Shown here one piece after another: positions 30,583 to 38,913 of a stretch of 39,145 nt of DNA (position 1 is its first letter; every line of letters begins with the position of its first letter). The notes beneath the pieces are model-generated. The model was not told the origin of the DNA. It worked only from the letters and a program-made list of their open reading frames with translations, and made no database searches. The position numbers were made by a program, and so were the translations under genes. The DNA comes from an uncultured archaeon (lineage in GTDB: Archaea > Altiarchaeota > Altiarchaeia > IMC4 > QMZM01), in contig CAZJVE010000012.1 of the NCBI GenBank assembly GCA_964549685.1, positions 1 to 39,145 on the forward strand, read 5' to 3'.

Positions 30583-31736
30583 ACGCAATCGAACTGGAGG
30601 AGAAGCACGGAAGCGGTCTTTTCAACATGCGAGGCATCAACATAGTCAGGGGCAAGGGCGCAAAGCTCTGGGATGACTCCGGCAAAGAATATATCGACTG
30701 CCTTGGCTCTCATGGAGCCATGAACGTCGGGCACTGCAATCCCTATGTCGTCGAGGCGATAGAGAAGCAGGCCAGGGAGCTGATAATGTCTTCTCCCCTG
30801 CTCAACAACGAACTGAGGGCAATGCTCTACGAAAAACTCGCAACCATCACTCCCAAGGGCCTGGAAAGGACCTTTCTCTGCAACAGCGGGACGGAGGCCG
30901 TGGAGGCAGCAATCAAATTCGCAAGGGGCTCAACCGGAAAGAAGGAGATTATAGCATTCAAGAACGGCTTTTCCGGCAGAACAATGGGTGCGCTTTCCGC
31001 GACATGGAATCTGAAATATAGGAAGCCATTCGAACCGCTCGTTCCTGGCTTCAGGCACGTTGCCTATGGGAAGATTGATGAACTGAGGAAGGAGATTGGC
31101 TCTGACACAGCAGCCGTCTTAATAGAGCCCATCCAGGGAGAGGGCGGGGTCCGAATCCCGCCGGACGGCTATCTCAAAGAGGTCGAAGAGCTCTGCAGGA
31201 AAAAGGACGTCCTCCTTATCATGGACGAGATTCAGACCGGCTTTGCAAGAACAGGCAAGATGTTCGCCTGCATGTACGACAGGGTCGAGCCGGACATCAT
31301 GTGCCTTGCAAAGTCCATTGCAGGGGGCGTTCCGATGGGCGCAGCCGTCTTTTCAGATGCTGTTGCCTCAAGGCTAAAGAAGGGCTGGCACGGCGGAACC
31401 TTTGGCGGGAATCCTCTGGCCTGCGCTGCTTCACTCGCTGCCATAAGATATATTGAAGACCACAAGCTCGAGAAGGCAGCAGCGAAGAAGGGGGAATACA
31501 TGCTGAAGGGGCTGAAGGATATCGATGCAGGGAATATCCGCGAGGCACGGGGCCGCGGGTTAATGCTTGCCCTGGAATTCAAGGAAAAGGCAGGCAGGTA
31601 TATCACAGCTCTAATGGAGGAGGGAGTATTCACCCTTCCGACAGGCTCCGCAGCGATAAGGTTTCTGCCCCCATTAGTAATCTCAGACTCCGAGATGGAC
31701 TTCGTCCTGGAGAAGGTAAGGAAGGTACTGACATGA
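30579..31736 (+). CDS. lysJ: LysW-aminoadipate semialdehyde transaminase (class III aminotransferase)
   Basis: NSGTEAVE, EPIQGEGG, DEIQTG, AKSIAGG and HGGTFGGNP; ATGA-coupled to lysZ. Confidence 0.92.
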   Translation: MNAIELEEKHGSGLFNMRGINIVRGKGAKLWDDSGKEYIDCLGSHGAMNVGHCNPYVVEAIEKQARELIMSSPLLNNELRAMLYEKLATITPKGLERTFLCNSGTEAVEAAIKFARGSTGKKEIIAFKNGFSGRTMGALSATWNLKYRKPFEPLVPGFRHVAYGKIDELRKEIGSDTAAVLIEPIQGEGGVRIPPDGYLKEVEELCRKKDVLLIMDEIQTGFARTGKMFACMYDRVEPDIMCLAKSIAGGVPMGAAVFSDAVASRLKKGWHGGTFGGNPLACAASLAAIRYIEDHKLEKAAAKKGEYMLKGLKDIDAGNIREARGRGLMLALEFKEKAGRYITALMEEGVFTLPTGSAAIRFLPPLVISDSEMDFVLEKVRKVLT

Positions 31737-32767: not shown

Positions 32768-32793
32768 TAGGAATACAAATATTGGAGTATACA

Positions 32794-33537
32794 ATGCAAA
32801 TCGTCCACCTCTCAGACTTACATTGCAGTAAGCGCTGGTTCAGTGAGGGGAATCTTGCCCTGGCCATAGAGGAGATAAACGAGCTGAAGCCGGACATGGT
32901 TGTCGTAACAGGAGACCTCACGGAAAATGGGTTTCTCAGGGAATACGAGATTGCCAAGAAATATCTGGACAGGATAAAGTGCAAGAGGACCATCATAGGC
33001 ACGGGGAACCACGACTACCGCTCCACGGGATACCTGCTGTCCCAGAGGTACTTCAAAAGGCCCGAGACCATAAAGCACAAGAACGCCATTGTAACATACC
33101 TGAGCACCGCGAGGCCGGACAAGGATGGGGGCGAAGTAGGCTACAGGCAGCTTCAATGGCTGAAGAGAACCCTGAGCGAAAACAAGGAGAAGTTCAAGGT
33201 CGTTGCCCTTCATCATCACATGATTCCCATCCCCGACACGGGGTTGGAGAGGACCACCATAAACGATGCAGGAGATGTGATAAGGGCACTGACGCAGAGC
33301 AACGTGAACCTGATTCTCTGCGGGCACAGGCACAGGCCCTGGTGCCTTCATCTTGACAGCACCACCATACTGAACGCAGGGACAGTCTCATCTGAAAAGT
33401 TCCGCGGGTTCTTCGCAAACTCCTACAACATCATCAAGGTGAAAAAGAAGAAGATAGACGCGAAGATAAAGGTCGTTGGTGGAGATGCCCTGGACTTCAA
33501 GAAGATTCTGAAGGAGAACGAGCCGTTTATACCCTGA
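32794..33537 (+). CDS. Calcineurin-like metallophosphoesterase (CpdA-like)
   Basis: SDLH, TGDLT, GNHD, HHH and GHRH motifs. Confidence 0.9.
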   Translation: MQIVHLSDLHCSKRWFSEGNLALAIEEINELKPDMVVVTGDLTENGFLREYEIAKKYLDRIKCKRTIIGTGNHDYRSTGYLLSQRYFKRPETIKHKNAIVTYLSTARPDKDGGEVGYRQLQWLKRTLSENKEKFKVVALHHHMIPIPDTGLERTTINDAGDVIRALTQSNVNLILCGHRHRPWCLHLDSTTILNAGTVSSEKFRGFFANSYNIIKVKKKKIDAKIKVVGGDALDFKKILKENEPFIP

Positions 33538-33579: not shown

Positions 33580-34077
33580 ATGGATGTCCTGATACGCCAG
33601 GAGGGTGCCGATGACTATGACGAGATAGACAAGGTCATCGAATCCGCATTTAACCAGAAGAATGAAGCAGAGCTCGTTCGGAAATTGCGCGAAACAGAAA
33701 GATTTAATCAGGTTCTATCTCTTGTCGCAACCATGGGCGATAGAGTCATCGGGCAGATACTTTTTTATCCGGTGAATAGAAAGACACTTATACTTGCCCC
33801 AATGTGCGTAAAGCCGGAAATGCAAAGAAAGGGCGTCGGCGGAAAGCTTATCAAAGAGGGACTGAAGAGGGCATTAGAGCAAGGTTACGACTCGGTGATA
33901 GTGGTTGGGCATCCGGAGTACTATCCGCGGTTTGGCTTCAAGCCAGCAAGCGGATGGAAAATCAGACTGGCGTTTGACGTCCCTGACGAAGCATTTATGG
34001 CAATCGAGTTGATAGATGATTCTCTTGATAGAAAGGGGGGATTAGTGGAACTACCCCGGCCATATATGGAGTGCTGA
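33580..34077 (+). CDS. GNAT N-acetyltransferase (YhbS-like)
   Basis: EAELVRKLR, LAPMCVKPEMQRKGVG and VVGHPEYYPRFGF. Confidence 0.92.
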   Translation: MDVLIRQEGADDYDEIDKVIESAFNQKNEAELVRKLRETERFNQVLSLVATMGDRVIGQILFYPVNRKTLILAPMCVKPEMQRKGVGGKLIKEGLKRALEQGYDSVIVVGHPEYYPRFGFKPASGWKIRLAFDVPDEAFMAIELIDDSLDRKGGLVELPRPYMEC

Positions 34078-34099: not shown

Positions 34100-34564
34100 C
34101 TACTTAAGGCTCCGGGCAAACTCTTGTGCATCCTTGAGGTCTTCAGCATTGGGCCTGCCCTTGTTTATTCCCCCGATGTATTTGAGAACGGAGTTGGTGT
34201 CAAGGCCCACACAATTAAATTCACCAGCAATTACGTAGCCTTTTGCCTGCAGTTTTTCCCTAAGGGCGTCATGAAATTTACGCGCAGTACTTCTGAATAT
34301 GCGCGAATCAACGGCAACCCCGCTGGTCGAGAAGATGAACGCCTTTCCTTTTGTTGTTTGCGGCAGCCTGTCGGCAAGCTCAAGCAGGGCCCGGTGGTGC
34401 TTGGCATCATAAATCCCAGAGCCAAAACCTATCAGGTCGTATTCCCCGATATCGCTTAATTCCTTCGGCTCTATCAAATCCGCATCCAGAACTTCAGCCA
34501 TCCTCCTGGCAATCTTCTCTGTGTTGCCGTGGTGTATGGACTTGTTTATTATCAACGTTTTCAT
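34100..34564 (-). CDS. Flavodoxin family protein
   Basis: SIHHGNTEKIA, GFGSGIY, FSTSG and NKGRPNAEDL; true ATG 34564 lies 2 nt after a tRNA-3'-end repeat. Confidence 0.92.
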   Translation of the reverse strand: MKTLIINKSIHHGNTEKIARRMAEVLDADLIEPKELSDIGEYDLIGFGSGIYDAKHHRALLELADRLPQTTKGKAFIFSTSGVAVDSRIFRSTARKFHDALREKLQAKGYVIAGEFNCVGLDTNSVLKYIGGINKGRPNAEDLKDAQEFARSLK

Positions 34565-34566
34565 TT

Positions 34567-34578
34567 TGCCGAAGACGG
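34567..34578 (-). repeat. Direct repeat of tRNA-Met 3' end, copy 3 (CCGTCTTCGGCA)
   Basis: tgccgaagacgg is identical to 37374-37385 and 36317-36328. Confidence 0.9.
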
Positions 34579-34583
34579 TTAGA

Positions 34584-35213
34584 TTATTTCCTCCGAAATA
34601 GTGTGTATATGTACGGCCGGGTGTCTCCTGAGGGCATGTGGTACAGGTAATCGAAGGAGTCAACCAGTTCAAAGTCTTCCCCCAGTTTTTCCGCCAGCAT
34701 TTTGGTGTCGTATCTCTTGACGTCCAGACCGCTGCATTTTTCCGCCCCTTCCAGAGAGAAAACGGCGATAATCACGTGACTGCCTTTCCAGACTACCTTT
34801 TTCAGCGTCGAGAAATAGGCCTGCTGCTGCTCTTCCTCTACCAGGAAGTGCAGCACGGCCCTGTCATGCCAGAGGGCGATGTCCTTTAGAGCATGGATGT
34901 GTTCCGACTGGCCGATATCGTCCACAATCCATCTGACCGAGGAGGCCCTTTCTTCCCCCAACCGCTCCTTTAGCTTGTCCAGGGCTGCTTCACTTATGTC
35001 GGTGGCGATGATATTACTGAACCCCCCGTCGATGAGGGAGTCTATGAACGTCGATGCCCCGGAGCCCACGTCCAAGATGGGCTCGGCCTTGCCGACATTG
35101 CTCTTGGATACCAGGCCCAGGGAAGGCGTCGATTCTTCCTCGTACCAGCCCAGCTTATCCACTTCCCTTGAATGATAGACGCTGTTCCAGTGTTCTTTCA
35201 TTGAGTCATTCAT
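34584..35213 (-). CDS. Class I SAM-dependent methyltransferase (TPMT/TehB-like)
   Basis: HWNSVY, ILDVGSGAS, DISEAAL, WHDRAVLHFL and CSGL. Confidence 0.9.
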   Translation of the reverse strand: MNDSMKEHWNSVYHSREVDKLGWYEEESTPSLGLVSKSNVGKAEPILDVGSGASTFIDSLIDGGFSNIIATDISEAALDKLKERLGEERASSVRWIVDDIGQSEHIHALKDIALWHDRAVLHFLVEEEQQQAYFSTLKKVVWKGSHVIIAVFSLEGAEKCSGLDVKRYDTKMLAEKLGEDFELVDSFDYLYHMPSGDTRPYIYTLFRRK

Positions 35214-35493
35214 TTTTGATTTCCTTTTTCATCTCCCCGAATTGTTTTTTTGTTATCTCGCCCTTGGCATATCTCATCCTGATTATGGTCAGCGCGTCTG
35301 AGGTCTCCCCCCTACTGGAAGAGACAAGGGTGACTACAAGCCAGATAATCGCGCCCCAGAAAAGCAGCATGAATATAAATCCGAATCCCATGCCGAATCC
35401 CATCATGCCGTAGCCTCCCATGCCCGTTCCTCCAAAGATAAACAAAAGGATTACCGCCGCGATGAGAACCCAGAGTGCCGTGTCTTTGTCCAT
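35206..35493 (-). CDS. SHOCT-domain membrane protein
   Basis: Gly/Met-rich GMGGYGMMGFGMGFG, two TM helices, RMRYAKGEITKKQF. Confidence 0.9.
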   Translation of the reverse strand: MDKDTALWVLIAAVILLFIFGGTGMGGYGMMGFGMGFGFIFMLLFWGAIIWLVVTLVSSSRGETSDALTIIRMRYAKGEITKKQFGEMKKEIKNE

Positions 35494-35499
35494 TGTTGG

Positions 35500-35841
35500 T
35501 TACCTCCTCTTCTTGATTCTCTCTGCGAATTTCTGGCCGCTTGTCAGTTGCTCCAGCAGGACCTCCCGCATGATGTCGCAGGCCTGGACAACCTTCGGGT
35601 TTGCTATTCGATAGTATACGCTGAGTCCGTCTCTTCTTGTCAGCACTATCTTCTTGTTCCGCATCAATGCCAGGTGCTGGGAGAGATTGGCCTTGCGTAT
35701 CTTCATCCTTGATGTCAGTTCATCTACCGACATCTCGCTGTCCCGCAGCAGGTTTATTATTTCCAGCCGCTTGGGGTTGGACATGGTCTTGCAGACCTCC
35801 GCGTGCAGCTCGTATATTTTTTTATCCATTTTCTCCCTCAT
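35500..35841 (-). CDS. ArsR/SmtB family transcriptional regulator (two Cys)
   Basis: HAEVCKTMSNPKRLEII, ANLSQHL, YYRIANPKVVQACD; ATGA overlap with the upstream gene. Confidence 0.93.
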   Translation of the reverse strand: MREKMDKKIYELHAEVCKTMSNPKRLEIINLLRDSEMSVDELTSRMKIRKANLSQHLALMRNKKIVLTRRDGLSVYYRIANPKVVQACDIMREVLLEQLTSGQKFAERIKKRR

Positions 35842-36248
35842 AGGGTCTTCCAGACCTTCGCCAGCGACTCCCCTCCAACGTGTATCTTGAATTCAAGGAA
35901 GTAACCGAACGGTGTTGAATCCACCTCGAATCCCTTTTCGGTGAGTTTCGACTTGAGTGACTCAATCATCTCCTGGGCGAATTCAATGCCTGACTTGCTC
36001 TCGGACAGGTGCGCAAAGGAATGGAGCATTATTTTTTCCCGCCCGACCTTCCTTGCGAGCCAGGATATGTTGCTGGTGGCCTTTTTCAGAACCTTCTCCC
36101 TGCGGCTTTCGTCCTCGGCCTCGGACTGCAGGAATACGACAACGGAATCGTTTGTCGTTTGCTCTGTGTTCACGGTCTCAGCGCCTTCCACCGTCTTGCT
36201 GAAGGTCTTGTACCAGAATTCCGGGGAGTCGAACATCAATAGTTTCAT
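35838..36248 (-). CDS. Free-standing threonyl-tRNA synthetase editing-domain protein
   Basis: MKLLMF, EAEDE, LHSFAHLS, TPFGYF and GESLAK match the archaeal-type ThrRS N-terminal editing domain. Confidence 0.85.
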   Translation of the reverse strand: MKLLMFDSPEFWYKTFSKTVEGAETVNTEQTTNDSVVVFLQSEAEDESRREKVLKKATSNISWLARKVGREKIMLHSFAHLSESKSGIEFAQEMIESLKSKLTEKGFEVDSTPFGYFLEFKIHVGGESLAKVWKTL

Positions 36249-36296
36249 AGTTTCTAAATATCGAATATATGATATTATGAATCAATCTTTAAATAC
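36247..36296 (-). promoter_or_regulatory. Promoter and probable ArsR operator
   Basis: TATTTAAAG TATA-like box on the - strand at about 36287-36295, followed by AATATC-N8-GATATT and overlapping imperfect AT-rich inverted repeats abutting the ATG. Confidence 0.5.
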
Positions 36297-36316
36297 CGAG
36301 CAGAAACCAGATAAAA

Positions 36317-36328
36317 TGCCGAAGACGG
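36317..36328 (-). repeat. Direct repeat of tRNA-Met 3' end, copy 2
   Basis: - strand GGGTTCCGTCTTCGGCA versus tRNA GGGTTCAAGTCCCGTCTTCGGCA, i.e. the same sequence lacking 6 nt of the T-loop/stem. Confidence 0.9.
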
Positions 36329-36365
36329 AACCCAATCAAATGTTCGCATAACCAATACGGTAACT

Positions 36366-36400
36366 TGATGTATGGATTTATTTATTATCAGCGTTTTCAC
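36366..36400 (-). pseudogene. 5' remnant of a flavodoxin gene
   Basis: 30/35 nt identical to 34530-34564; encodes (V/M)[10 protein letters not shown]; GTGA overlap with the oxidoreductase stop. Confidence 0.8.
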
Positions 36401-37371
36401 TTTATCGTTATGACGACATTCCCCTTCTTGTGCCCTTTGTCGACATAGCTGTGGGCCTCGACAATCTGCTCCAGAGGATAGCTTCTGTCAATGGCAGCCT
36501 TTAACTCCCCTGCCTCGATAAGCTCTTTGAAGAAGAGCAGGTCCTCGATTCTGTCCCCGGCTACCCCGCCGATTACCTTCTTGCTGCTCGTCATGGAGGT
36601 CCATATGCCTCGGACAAGAGGTGACAGCGTCATGTGGACGGCCCTAAGGTAGCGCCCATTCTCATTCAATGCTTTTACACTGCCTGAAAACGGGCTCTTT
36701 CCTACAGTGTCAAAAATAACGTCATAGGTCTCGCCGTTCTTGGTGAAGTCCTCTTTTGTATAGTCAATCACCTTGTCGGCGCCCAGGGATTTCACCATTT
36801 CCAGGTTCGTGGTGCTGCATACCCCTGTAACCTCCGCTCCAAGGTGCTTGGCAAGCTGTACCGCAAATGTTCCTATCGCTCCGGAAGCGCCGTAGATGAG
36901 GACTTTTTGCCCGTCCCGGACATCCCCTTTCCTAAGGAAATGCAGCGCAGTCTGTGCACCAAACGGAACGGCGGCGGCTTCCTCGTAAGTCATGTTGGCC
37001 GGCTTTGCTGCCAGCGTCCCGTCCTCGGGCAGGCACTTGTACTCGACATGGGTGCCCATTCCAAAACCGGCGGAGCCAAAGACCTGGTCGCCTTTCTTGA
37101 ATTTCTTTACGTCCTTGCCCACTGCCTCAACCTCCCCGGCCAGGGTAAAACCCAGTATCTTGTTCCTTGGCCCTCTGATACCCGAGATTATTCGGTAGGG
37201 GAGCCATGGAAGGGGAGGAACGTCGAAACTCCGGGTTCTCGCGTCCCCTGACGATACTGTCGTTGCAAATACCTTGATAAGAACTTCGTTATCCTTCGGA
37301 ACAGGTTTTTCCACCTCTTCAATCTTGAGAACGTCCGGTGGTCCGTATTTTGTGCATACAGCCGCTTTCAT
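36397..37371 (-). CDS. NAD(P)-dependent MDR oxidoreductase (quinone reductase/zinc-independent ADH-like)
   Basis: [31 protein letters not shown] and GHKKGNVV; true start MKAAVC at 37371, since the track extension reads through the tRNA. Confidence 0.93.
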
Positions 37372-37373
37372 TA

Positions 37374-37488
37374 TGCCGAAGACGGGACTTGAACCCGTGA
37401 CTTCCACGTTTCTCAGTTAGAATGCTCTGGTTTGCCCGCGAGGGCTAACTTATGAGCGTGGCACTCTAACCAGCTGAGCTACTTCGGC
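37374..37488 (-). tRNA. Elongator tRNA-Met(CAT) with 41-nt canonical 37/38 intron (37410-37450)
   Basis: GCCGAAG/CTTCGGC-A acceptor; CCACG-CTCATA^A-CGTGG anticodon arm; perfect bulge-helix-bulge (CTCA/TGAG helix, TAA and AAA bulges, GTTAG/CTAAC); mature length 74 nt without CCA. Confidence 0.95.
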
Positions 37489-37489
37489 G

Positions 37490-37590
37490 GAACTGCAAAA
37501 TCAGTTCACACTTTGTGCGACGTACACTCGCCTACGGCTCGTTAGTCGCACTTGAATTCACCGGGTGAATCCACCGGCGGAATTCAGTGC
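37490..37590 (-). other. Hairpin-rich ~100-nt element between the putative promoter and tRNA-Met
   Basis: Inverted repeats at 37548-37590 (gcac-tgaattc...gaattca-gtgc), 37515-37551 (gtgcgac/gtcgcac) and 37490-37507 (gaactg/cagttc). Confidence 0.65.
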
Positions 37591-37656: not shown

Positions 37657-38913
37657 ATGGCGAAGCTAAGCAGGGAGGAAAGGGAGGCTCAGAGGAAGCA
37701 GAGGTTCCTGGTCATTATGATGCTTGTCGTAGCTGCAAGCATGCTTTTCTCCGGGATTTATTACATCAACATAGGCGGGGGCCCTGCGCCCATTCAGAAC
37801 GACCCGAGCGGGAAGCTTTCGCTCATAGAGCAGTACAATATCGAGCCCGCCACGAGCGGTTCGGTTCTTGTCCGGGCGGGGGAGCTGAAAAACGACCTCC
37901 TTGCAATCCCGATGGGCCAGTGCATGCAACTCGACAGCATAGTCGAGCTGAGGAATTCATCCATCGACGGGGTTGAGAGCATAAGCTGCGAGGTCGCGAA
38001 CCCGCAGATGGACCCCACCTTTTCGATAATCTGCGGCACGTTCATCATGTTCCGGTTCCGGTTCGACCTCAACGACTCGGGAGTTAATGAGAGGGTCAGG
38101 GAAAGGCTGAGCAACGTTCTGAGCGAATACAGCCTGATGAGGGGCTATACCGTGGAGCTGCAGGAGGCTGTCCTCGGCGCCGGTGAGATATACATCATCG
38201 GCAGCCCGGAGACGAAGGAGGGGGACTACGTCAGGGCGACGCTCTTCAGCAGGGACCTGATTGCAGGAGGCACCGGGCTGCTCGGCCTCGAGGAGAGAAT
38301 CGTCCCGGAAGCGTCCCGCGTCCCTGCAACGGTCGTCAACCTAACGGGAATCAGCGTCAGCGGCTCCGTTCCCGATGAATTCAACCGGCAGGCCGTGATG
38401 GATGCACTGGATTTGAACGATACGGAACTAAATTCCAGGCAGCCGGAATTCAGGGTCAATGGAACGTTGCCGGGGGAGAGCCTCGAGCTGATTGAGGCGG
38501 AGATACAGGAGGTCAACAACGTAACGACAATACGCTTCAACACGTCAAAGGACGAGATAGAGGCAGTCATCAAAGACGGGGGGCTGCCATACACCTTCGA
38601 ACCCGGAGCAGTATTCTTCCAGATCGGGCTGAATGATAGCACGGGCTATGTCGAATCGCTGCTGGCTGAAAACGGCGCCGAGAACGTAACCTTCCAGAAG
38701 GTCGGGCTCGTATCGATGCCTGCCGAGGTGATAGTCGGCGAGATGCTGGTTCCGATAGAGAACTACGAGGCATTTAACACAATGCTCAAGATGGATACAG
38801 TTGTAGGAGATGAAATCAACATCAGCCTCAACACCATAACCTTCGGCGATCAGGTGATTCCCTTCGGAGCGCTGGAGCTGGGGAACGAGACTACTCCCAG
38901 TGCTCGTCAATGA
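37657..38913 (+). CDS. Hypothetical membrane-anchored extracellular protein
   Basis: Basic N-terminus, one TM helix, then an acidic domain with many N-x-S/T sequons. Confidence 0.8.
   Translation: MAKLSREEREAQRKQRFLVIMMLVVAASMLFSGIYYINIGGGPAPIQNDPSGKLSLIEQYNIEPATSGSVLVRAGELKNDLLAIPMGQCMQLDSIVELRNSSIDGVESISCEVANPQMDPTFSIICGTFIMFRFRFDLNDSGVNERVRERLSNVLSEYSLMRGYTVELQEAVLGAGEIYIIGSPETKEGDYVRATLFSRDLIAGGTGLLGLEERIVPEASRVPATVVNLTGISVSGSVPDEFNRQAVMDALDLNDTELNSRQPEFRVNGTLPGESLELIEAEIQEVNNVTTIRFNTSKDEIEAVIKDGGLPYTFEPGAVFFQIGLNDSTGYVESLLAENGAENVTFQKVGLVSMPAEVIVGEMLVPIENYEAFNTMLKMDTVVGDEINISLNTITFGDQVIPFGALELGNETTPSARQ

Follow-up and report, generated by a model that had tools for sequence, protein, structure and literature searches.

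Blocks of accessory genes bordered by copies of the tRNA-Met 3' end in an uncultured altiarchaeal genome, probable scars of serial integration at one tRNA gene

In an uncultured archaeon of the Altiarchaeota, the DNA downstream of a tRNA-Met gene is divided into small blocks of accessory genes by displaced copies of the 3' end of that tRNA. The stretch analysed here, referred to as the window, is 39,145 nucleotides (nt) long (contig CAZJVE010000012.1, assembly GCA_964549685.1), and the genome from which it comes (G000) is represented by an assembly of 1,166,103 bases in 27 contigs that is 85% complete. It was compared with a set of 49 genomes of the order, among which G001 is of the same genus, G007 of a different genus, and G030 and G031 of another family; public records of the relatives carry the label Candidatus Altiarchaeota. 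The tRNA(CAU) gene, called Met and considered here as the candidate attachment-site gene, lies on the minus strand at 37374..37488 (Rfam RF00005, 59.2 bits). ARAGORN run with introns allowed reads it as tRNA-Met(cat) with a 41-nt intron, i(39,41); without the intron option the program misses it, and the call is settled by Rfam together with ARAGORN -i. The last 12 nt of the gene, CCGTCTTCGGCA, occur three times in the window, always on the minus strand: at 37374-37385 (copy A), where they comprise the final 4 nt of the T-stem together with the 3' acceptor strand and the discriminator base of the tRNA; at 36317-36328 (copy B), a displaced tRNA 3' end at the right border of a block with an MDR oxidoreductase gene; and at 34567-34578 (copy C), the right border of a block that starts with a threonyl-tRNA synthetase editing-domain gene (ThrRS-ed).

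The original prediction, made from the letters of the window, had placed the 12-mer at these three same-strand positions and the two extra copies in intergenic DNA at the borders of gene blocks. Both observations are confirmed, and the three are the sole exact copies in the whole 1,166,103-base assembly (a control search with the sequence read backwards gives 0). They span 2.8 kb, where chance would give about 2e-4 occurrences in 3 kb of one strand. When up to one mismatch is tolerated, the window contains 4 matches, as against a mean of 0.30 in 100 shuffles, none of which (0/100) reaches 4, and across the 49 genomes the count per genome is 0-5, with clustering on one contig only in this genus. 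Chance and a dispersed genome-wide motif are rejected on these grounds. That the repeats are accidental, belong to a functional motif unrelated to mobility, or arose as an assembly artefact might be argued from the tiny CCG/CGG stem within the 12-mer and from the fact that the genome is metagenome-assembled; such readings are extremely improbable, since three copies lie so close together with none elsewhere in 1.17 Mb, 12 nt are too short to mislead an assembler, and metagenome contigs run across all three copies in X4, across copy B in X5 and, in a run of another study (X9), across copy A. Part of the window is present in twelve runs, which come from 4 studies and are without exception metagenomes of marine or seawater origin; they consist of assembled contigs, in which rare excision or circle forms are invisible.

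The first block beyond the tRNA (1,057 bp) is occupied by the gene of a zinc-type MDR oxidoreductase (36397..37371, minus strand; Pfam ADH_zinc_N_2, ADH_zinc_N and ADH_N). Its ATG follows 2 nt after the last tRNA base, the discriminator (window 37371-37374), and no T-run or terminator lies between. At the other end, the MDR stop is overlapped by a remnant of a second flavodoxin gene (36366..36403, minus strand; 11 codons at 36368-36400), a 38-nt repeat that is 87% identical to 34530-34567 and encodes the same 11 amino acids. All 5 differences are synonymous or ATG/GTG, so the two flavodoxin 5' copies must have accumulated them in separate lineages while both genes were still functional, and one was truncated afterwards. 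There follows a 37-nt spacer (36329..36365, minus strand) ending in GGGTT, and then copy B, which has the MDR stop (36397) on one side and the start of ThrRS-ed (36248) on the other and whose match to the tRNA extends to 15/16 nt. Spacer and copy B together read GGGTTC/CGTCTTCGGCA, which may be a T-arm that has lost 6 nt by deletion.

The second block (1,750 bp) opens with TTTT directly after copy B, followed by an AT-rich, TATA-like sequence upstream of ThrRS-ed (36249..36316, minus strand; GC over 36249-36396 is 0.318), and these could serve as terminator and promoter. Four genes follow, all on the minus strand: a free-standing ThrRS editing-domain protein, which is an accessory copy (35838..36248; PF08915, tRNA-Thr_ED, E 1.3e-43); an ArsR-family regulator (35500..35841; PF01022, HTH_5); a small membrane protein with a SHOCT-like C-terminus (35206..35493; PF09851, 24.3 bits, under the 27-bit cut-off); and a class I S-adenosylmethionine-dependent methyltransferase (34584..35213; PF13649, Methyltransf_25, and PF13847). 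Copy C lies 5 nt past the methyltransferase stop (34584) and 2 nt ahead of the ATG (34564) of an intact flavodoxin gene (34100..34564, minus strand; PF12724, Flavodoxin_5), and the junctions at copies A and C have 21/23 nt in common, through the start codons of the next gene. Beyond the flavodoxin, and still within the variable region, a GNAT acetyltransferase is encoded on the plus strand (33580..34077; PF00583), with no match in the G001 locus. The region is flanked on the left by a conserved gene for a 418-residue membrane-anchored protein (37657..38913, plus strand; no Pfam or NCBIfam family) and on the right by a conserved metallophosphoesterase gene (32782..33537, plus strand; PF00149). 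The gene labels given earlier to MDR, ThrRS-edit, ArsR, SHOCT, methyltransferase and flavodoxin all hold in Pfam, with SHOCT below cut-off. The earlier description thus saw the repeats and the borders correctly, while overlooking the flavodoxin 5' remnant, the extension of copy B and the 21/23-nt repeat of the A and C junctions.

The blocks consist of accessory genes, as judged from the rarity of MDR, which was present in only two of 41 genomes searched (G000 and, at 46% identity, G007), and from the status of ThrRS-ed as a third copy that is closest to another family. G000 has three ThrRS editing domains, in the full-length ThrRS and in two free-standing proteins (at G000:C3:1966-2373, G000:C14:23896-24303 and, in the ThrRS-ed of the window, 35844-36248), and free-standing copies are sporadic across the order. 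The nearest DNA matches of ThrRS-ed are in G030 and G031 (74%), where it adjoins an ArsR gene with 76-80% amino acid identity to that of the window; the methyltransferase has 61% amino acid identity in G031. The flavodoxin is 57% identical in amino acids to the G007 gene that stands directly after MDR, so that MDR and flavodoxin are neighbours in G007 too, there not beside a tRNA. Base composition does not distinguish the blocks (GC 0.48-0.53; GC at third codon positions 0.52-0.71).

Sixteen homologous tRNA(CAU) loci, that of the window included, were compared, each with at least 0.5 kb of downstream sequence. Alignment of the locus across relatives, proposed along with the original prediction, reveals variable content between conserved flanks in G001 and a break in G002, where synteny ends at the tRNA. 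The tRNA of G001 is 96% identical and lies between the same 418-residue gene (81% nt and 76% amino acid identity; 62% amino acid identity in G002) and the same metallophosphoesterase (89% nt, 92% amino acid identity), with homology resuming at the 3' end of the latter gene. Between these flanks G001 carries other cargo (about 10 kb): 9.4 kb of glycosyltransferase and glycosidase genes and a 0.72 kb block with a DUF6036 nucleotidyltransferase, bounded by two displaced copies of its own tRNA end that match in 18/19 and 17/19 nt. No integrase was found in this interval by Pfam on the 10 open reading frames (ORFs) tested. The first gene after the G001 tRNA, P0001, starts 9 nt past it and has no Pfam, NCBIfam or PDB match; with neither family nor structure match, it bears no sign of being a recombinase.

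A displaced copy of the tRNA 3' end is found in seven of the 16 loci (G000, G001, G003, G006, G007, G020 and G024), with two such copies in G000, as in G001. The bounded block is 1.27 kb long in G003 (MazF toxin and antitoxin, plus a cyclophilin) and 2.03 kb in G020 (AbiEi/AbiEii); G006 has the AbiE block as in G020, with a repeat of 13/14 nt; a 31-nt copy ends 258 nt past the tRNA in G007, and the copy in G024 ends 193 nt past it. Mismatches occur in the copies of G001 (copy C), G003 and G006. The small tRNA-end blocks of relatives hold mostly toxin-antitoxin modules (AbiEi/AbiEii, MazF, Doc, DUF6036), a content that fits selective retention, as such modules resist deletion in decaying elements. 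The AbiEi/AbiEii block is common to two genera at the same site and with the same right border (L174 G020:C35, L182 G006:C1). Its identity between G020 and G006 is mosaic, 90% in the tRNA-proximal part and 64-69% in mid-block, and G020 has about 830 nt of additional DNA past the repeat.

An integrase of matching target exists in the lineage, since in two of the 16 loci (G017 and G022) a 414/418-residue tyrosine recombinase lies 47 and 140 nt past the homologous tRNA, directly 3' of it and in the same orientation; the sequence available downstream of these genes, 3.7 and 13.8 kb, shows no tRNA-end repeat. Further members of this integrase family (27-50% identity) lie directly 3' of tRNA-Asp and tRNA-His in G001, of tRNA-Asp in G016 and of tRNA-Cys in G004. 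Complete integrase elements are found at tRNA-Cys in G004, with a 15-nt repeat 9.6 kb away, and at tRNA-Glu in G033, with 11-16 nt repeats about 9.6 kb away; the 12-16 nt repeats of the window are therefore typical in length for this integrase family. For the tRNA-His integrase of G001 no attR was found within 10.5 kb.

In G000, profile searches give no match to PF00589 and none to Cas1, and tblastn with the integrases of seven relatives as queries gives nothing below E 0.07 and nothing on the contig of the window. The description of the array as integrase-less thus stands for the 85%-complete assembly, in which the proposed scan for orphan tyrosine recombinases also came back empty. An SSV-type integrase was considered and rejected: the sole PF16795 match in G000 (E 0.02) falls in a P-loop kinase-like ORF on another contig, and int halves of the SSV type were not seen at the borders, whose ORFs are cargo genes. 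A casposon was likewise rejected, with no Cas1 (PF01867) in G000-G002 and no inverted repeats at the block ends. Some PF00589 match is present in 30 of the 49 genomes, and many relatives have ones of ~270-300 residues; G000 and G002 have no match at all, not even a short XerA-like one, which may reflect incompleteness (85%) or real loss.

Other stable-RNA genes carry comparable scars. A genome scan for other tRNA 3' repeats, also proposed earlier, shows that tRNA-Asn, tRNA-Gln, tRNA-Ser and 5S of G000 are followed by copies of their own ends. At tRNA-Asn (G000:C2:136968-137666, L144) a 13-nt repeat bounds a 627-nt block with a Fic/Doc-type toxin and a 42-residue ORF; at the same tRNA G001 has a different block of ~0.98 kb with an 11/13-nt copy, and then a TnpB-like ORF. 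A homologue of the Doc module in G001 sits away from any tRNA. Directly after tRNA-Gln, tRNA-Ser(gga) and the 5S rRNA gene, G000 has integrase-less mini-elements of 110-230 nt (L141-L143; G000:C7:25181-25384, G000:C2:72561-72690 on the minus strand, and G000:C8:38663-38794), each closed by an invariant 28-mer that includes a 9-bp hairpin; beyond the 28-mer, 14-24 nt of the RNA gene's 3' end are repeated. Mini-elements with the hairpin are also found after 5S in G002, tRNA-Ile in G035 and another tRNA in G024, and a 23-nt core of the motif has 20 matches in 9 of the 49 genomes, spread over 4 families, with an invariant stem, a variable loop and 0 control matches. The family has no Rfam match, the 28-mer has 0 matches in viral contigs, and a consensus fold of the three mini-element copies was uninformative past the terminal 9-bp hairpin. 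At G046:C29:4983-5222 the motif is present four times within 240 nt, in two pairs 31 nt apart. Mini-inserts of a second family (140-240 nt), found after tRNA-Met and tRNA-Pro (L171 G007:C4; L183 G024:C2), end in a GGGGC..GCCCC hairpin plus CTGCGGTTC(A/G)G, and then the displaced tRNA end; in G033, an insert of ~87 nt follows tRNA-Thr.

These comparisons support reading the extra 12-mers as attachment (att)-type scars and the blocks as units stacked by site-specific recombination, because G001 has the same tRNA and flanks with other cargo and relatives have integrases 3' of the tRNA. The account that we consider probable, with appreciable doubt, is that elements integrated site-specifically at the tRNA one after another and that the integrase was then lost, so that the array is a relic of capture. 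The 3' end of tRNA(CAU) would be a chromosomal attachment site for tyrosine integrases of ~400-420 residues carried by mobile elements of the order. An incoming circle would bring its own copy of the tRNA tail, and its integration would rebuild the tRNA and displace the old tail downstream; the two extra 12-mers would then be the right-hand ends left by two insertions, one after the other. Of the blocks, that with MDR, which adjoins the tRNA, would be the newest, the ThrRS-ed/ArsR/SHOCT/methyltransferase block would be older, and the flavodoxin and GNAT genes would be the oldest islet or the original neighbours of the tRNA. Integrase modules would have been deleted later, or would not have come along with a block that was taken up as att-flanking DNA, and the remaining captured cargo would be frozen in a genome with no detectable integrase. 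We infer this order of events and the loss of the integrase. The MDR block most plausibly derives from the tRNA/MDR/flavodoxin locus of another lineage, as a fragment that may have arrived as att-flanking DNA through imprecise excision or accretion; alternatively, it may be the residue of a single deletion that extended from codon 12 of the flavodoxin to a point 37 nt ahead of the core. The apparent 6-nt deletion at copy B and the mismatches in copies of other genomes look like those of decaying relics.

Several observations weigh against integration followed by simple decay. None of the 9 repeat-bounded segments, found in 7 genomes, contains an integrase or a recognisable fragment of one; since the bounded segments are free of integrases and the integrase loci free of repeats over the 3.7 and 13.8 kb available, no locus at this tRNA shows integrase and repeat together. 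Deletion alone must account for the survival of both att borders around blocks of 0.2-2 kb. The ATG of MDR 2 nt after the tRNA and that of the flavodoxin 2 nt after copy C are tidy for random decay, although both start junctions may have arisen together. Over their 12 nt, copies B and C have no mismatch, whereas the flavodoxin remnant differs in 5/38 nt. The mini-elements at three stable-RNA genes of G000, which have conserved ends and no integrase, show that non-autonomous DNA has been moved to the 3' ends of RNA genes in this lineage. Finally, as the assembly is 85% complete, an integrase could lie in the missing part.

Much of the same evidence bears on a second explanation, which underlay the original prediction: the blocks would be cargo-only units that were inserted, and perhaps are still movable, without an integrase of their own, through a recombinase that acted in trans or that came in cis with an accreted, integrase-bearing element, and in known terms would be nearest to the cis-mobilizable elements (CIMEs) discussed below. 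This we regard as a minority possibility. It would account directly for the integrase-free state of all 9 bounded segments (in seven of the 16 loci), several of which are single modules of 0.2-2 kb, and for the AbiE block with its right border at the same site in two genera. The MDR block resembles att-flanking host DNA of another lineage plus 37 nt and a core, the appearance to be expected of a unit that was accreted or had been excised aberrantly. Relatives have integrases of suitable specificity, and the mini-elements with the invariant 28-mer after tRNA-Gln, tRNA-Ser and 5S rRNA stand in an integrase-less genome; these, however, share no ends with the blocks of the window. In addition, the T-loop and the 5' T-stem are missing from copies B and C, the blocks have no conserved arm sequence in common after the cores, T-runs aside, and no cassette is found at two positions or in two orders. 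The lack of an attC-like fold and of other joints in the metagenome contigs, detailed in the next paragraph, also counts against this explanation, with the limit that contigs do not reveal rare forms.

The likeness to an integron that had been drawn in the same context fares less well than the stacking itself. Site-specific stacking at the tRNA is supported; the integron analogy is not, for lack of an attC-like fold, an integrase and observed reordering. Folding of four repeat borders (two of G000 and two of G001) gave z values of -0.07, 0.38, 0.49 and -0.52, no better than shuffles. Contigs from four metagenome runs of three studies show only the arrangement of the window, with no cassette in another order or position, and contain no joints at the 12-mer cores, with the limit that contigs cannot reveal rare forms. 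Other contig joints (36432/36965 and others, with sides of 26-39 nt within the MDR gene) probably come from homologues in other organisms. Viral contigs gave 0 matches for the junctions 'core + ThrRS-ed block' and 'core + ATGAAA', which is weak negative evidence, and a viral-contig scan with a 19-mer of the tRNA returned only one bacterial-type tRNA-Leu.

A third explanation dispenses with recombinases: homologous and microhomology recombination between the tRNA-Met regions of different lineages could have produced a mosaic, with the tail duplicated as a by-product. The two diverged flavodoxin 5' ends and the 21/23-nt repeat at copies A and C show two alleles of one locus joined, and one allele could have lost MDR through the microhomology TGAAA.CG that the starts of MDR and flavodoxin share. 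A tRNA tail is not, however, duplicated by homologous exchange, and tail duplication recurs in seven of the 16 loci and at tRNA-Asn, tRNA-Gln, tRNA-Ser, tRNA-Pro and tRNA-Thr, in every case from near the T-loop to the discriminator, at tRNAs that carry integrases in relatives. A recombinase-free origin is for these reasons highly unlikely.

A bolder possibility concerns the order as a whole. Stable-RNA 3' ends throughout the order might be docking sites for integrase-less units mobilized by a recombinase in trans, units that would range from hairpin-ended mini-elements of ~0.1-0.25 kb to gene or toxin-antitoxin cassettes of 1-2 kb. The tRNA would anchor an integron-like platform, whose first cassette would be read through from the tRNA promoter and freed as a near-leaderless mRNA by tRNA 3' processing. 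As a whole this proposal seems quite unlikely. Its expression component can be considered separately: with the MDR start 2 nt past the tRNA without a terminator, and the first island gene of G001 at 9 nt, co-transcription of tRNA and mRNA is implied, so that MDR may be expressed by read-through from the tRNA promoter and tRNA 3' processing may yield a near-leaderless MDR mRNA.

She et al. (2001/2004) reportedly described gene capture at tRNA genes of archaea, with integrated elements in tandem. Integrated elements of archaea are known to lose the integrase after integration and to integrate in tandem (PMC8371274), Thaumarchaeota att sites are short, with a median of 17 bp (PMC6563490), and integrative elements decay to CIMEs and accrete (PMC5704250). 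The locus resembles archaeal gene capture in its use of the tRNA 3' end as att, in partial tRNA copies as borders, in multiple insertions per locus and in cargo that stays in the chromosome after the integrase is lost (PMC8371274). It differs in the very small size of the blocks (1.06 and 1.75 kb), in repeats of no more than 12-16 nt and in the integrases of relatives, which are not of the SSV type that splits its own gene. The Altiarchaeota, to which the host is assigned, go unnamed in the available text of that review of archaeal tyrosine recombinases (PMC8371274), where 'Altiarchae' has 0 occurrences. As in an array of tRNA-targeted elements, an intact tRNA stands at one border, direct copies of its 3' end stand at the others, and the content differs between conserved flanks; an integrase inside the element is lacking.

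Among bacterial systems, the CIMEs of Streptococcus have lost integration and transfer genes, keep attL and attR, and are stacked in tandem with later arrivals at the target 3' end (PMC5704250). The blocks described here likewise have no integration or transfer genes and keep both att borders; CIMEs, however, are bacterial, linked to conjugation and usually larger, and their mobilisation has been demonstrated (PMC5704250). The ssrA islands of Dehalococcoides are also arranged in tandem downstream of one stable-RNA gene, with 3'-end repeats of ~20 bp and insertion in or near the T-loop, and some are without an integration module and perhaps fixed; 16 islands have a serine recombinase and a six-gene integration module, of which there is none here (PMC3146451). 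Tycheposon islands of Prochlorococcus share a streamlined marine host, tyrosine-recombinase elements at few tRNA genes, partial tRNAs between neighbouring elements, degenerate remnants and co-transfer of flanking host DNA; they are bacterial and usually keep integrase and replication modules, and the resemblance is one of architecture only (bioRxiv 10.1101/2020.12.28.424599). With integrons the locus has in common the serial capture, at one site, of small and mostly one-way gene units, among which toxin-antitoxin cassettes are common, but no IntI-type integrase with attI and a Pc promoter lies beside the array, there are no attC hairpins, and no reordering was seen. Decayed elements that have no integrase, keep their att sites and form arrays are thus already known (PMC5704250, PMC3146451, bioRxiv 10.1101/2020.12.28.424599).

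Some further observations concern the surroundings of the locus. Palindromes with GAATTC (GGAATTCCCC...GGGGAATTC) lie beside the tRNA-Met loci of three congeners (window 37545-37590; L013 about 975-1020; L017 about 2190-2240), and also inside one mini-element. The final 12 nt of tRNA-Gly(tcc), a gene located on another contig, recur in the window at 31332-31343 on the plus strand, probably by chance, since ~4 such matches are expected genome-wide for 27 tRNAs. A metagenome scan with the 418-residue flank protein found one contig of 2.1 kb, which does not reach the array. Among the 80 of 105 stretches listed for a 22-mer of the tRNA in a genome collection, two are archaeal (Candidatus Altiarchaeota archaeon); the remaining listed matches were set aside as bacterial tRNAs with one match each, which are uninformative.

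The mechanism is ordinary in kind and new for this group, and current concepts remain unchanged by it; the locus extends the known biology of gene capture and accretion to a new group. Short att sites of 11-16 nt and the compact ~415-residue integrases of relatives are of possible practical interest, and a gene that starts 2 nt past a tRNA offers a direct test case for tRNA-mRNA co-transcription in archaea. Because the pattern recurs at several tRNAs and in seven of the 16 tRNA-Met loci, tRNA-tail repeats could be used as a cheap marker of the flexible genome in these uncultured lineages. For this streamlined marine archaeon, with a genome of about 1.2-1.4 Mb, one tRNA would be a repeatedly used entry point for accessory genes, and the scars left there would let the order of their arrival be read.

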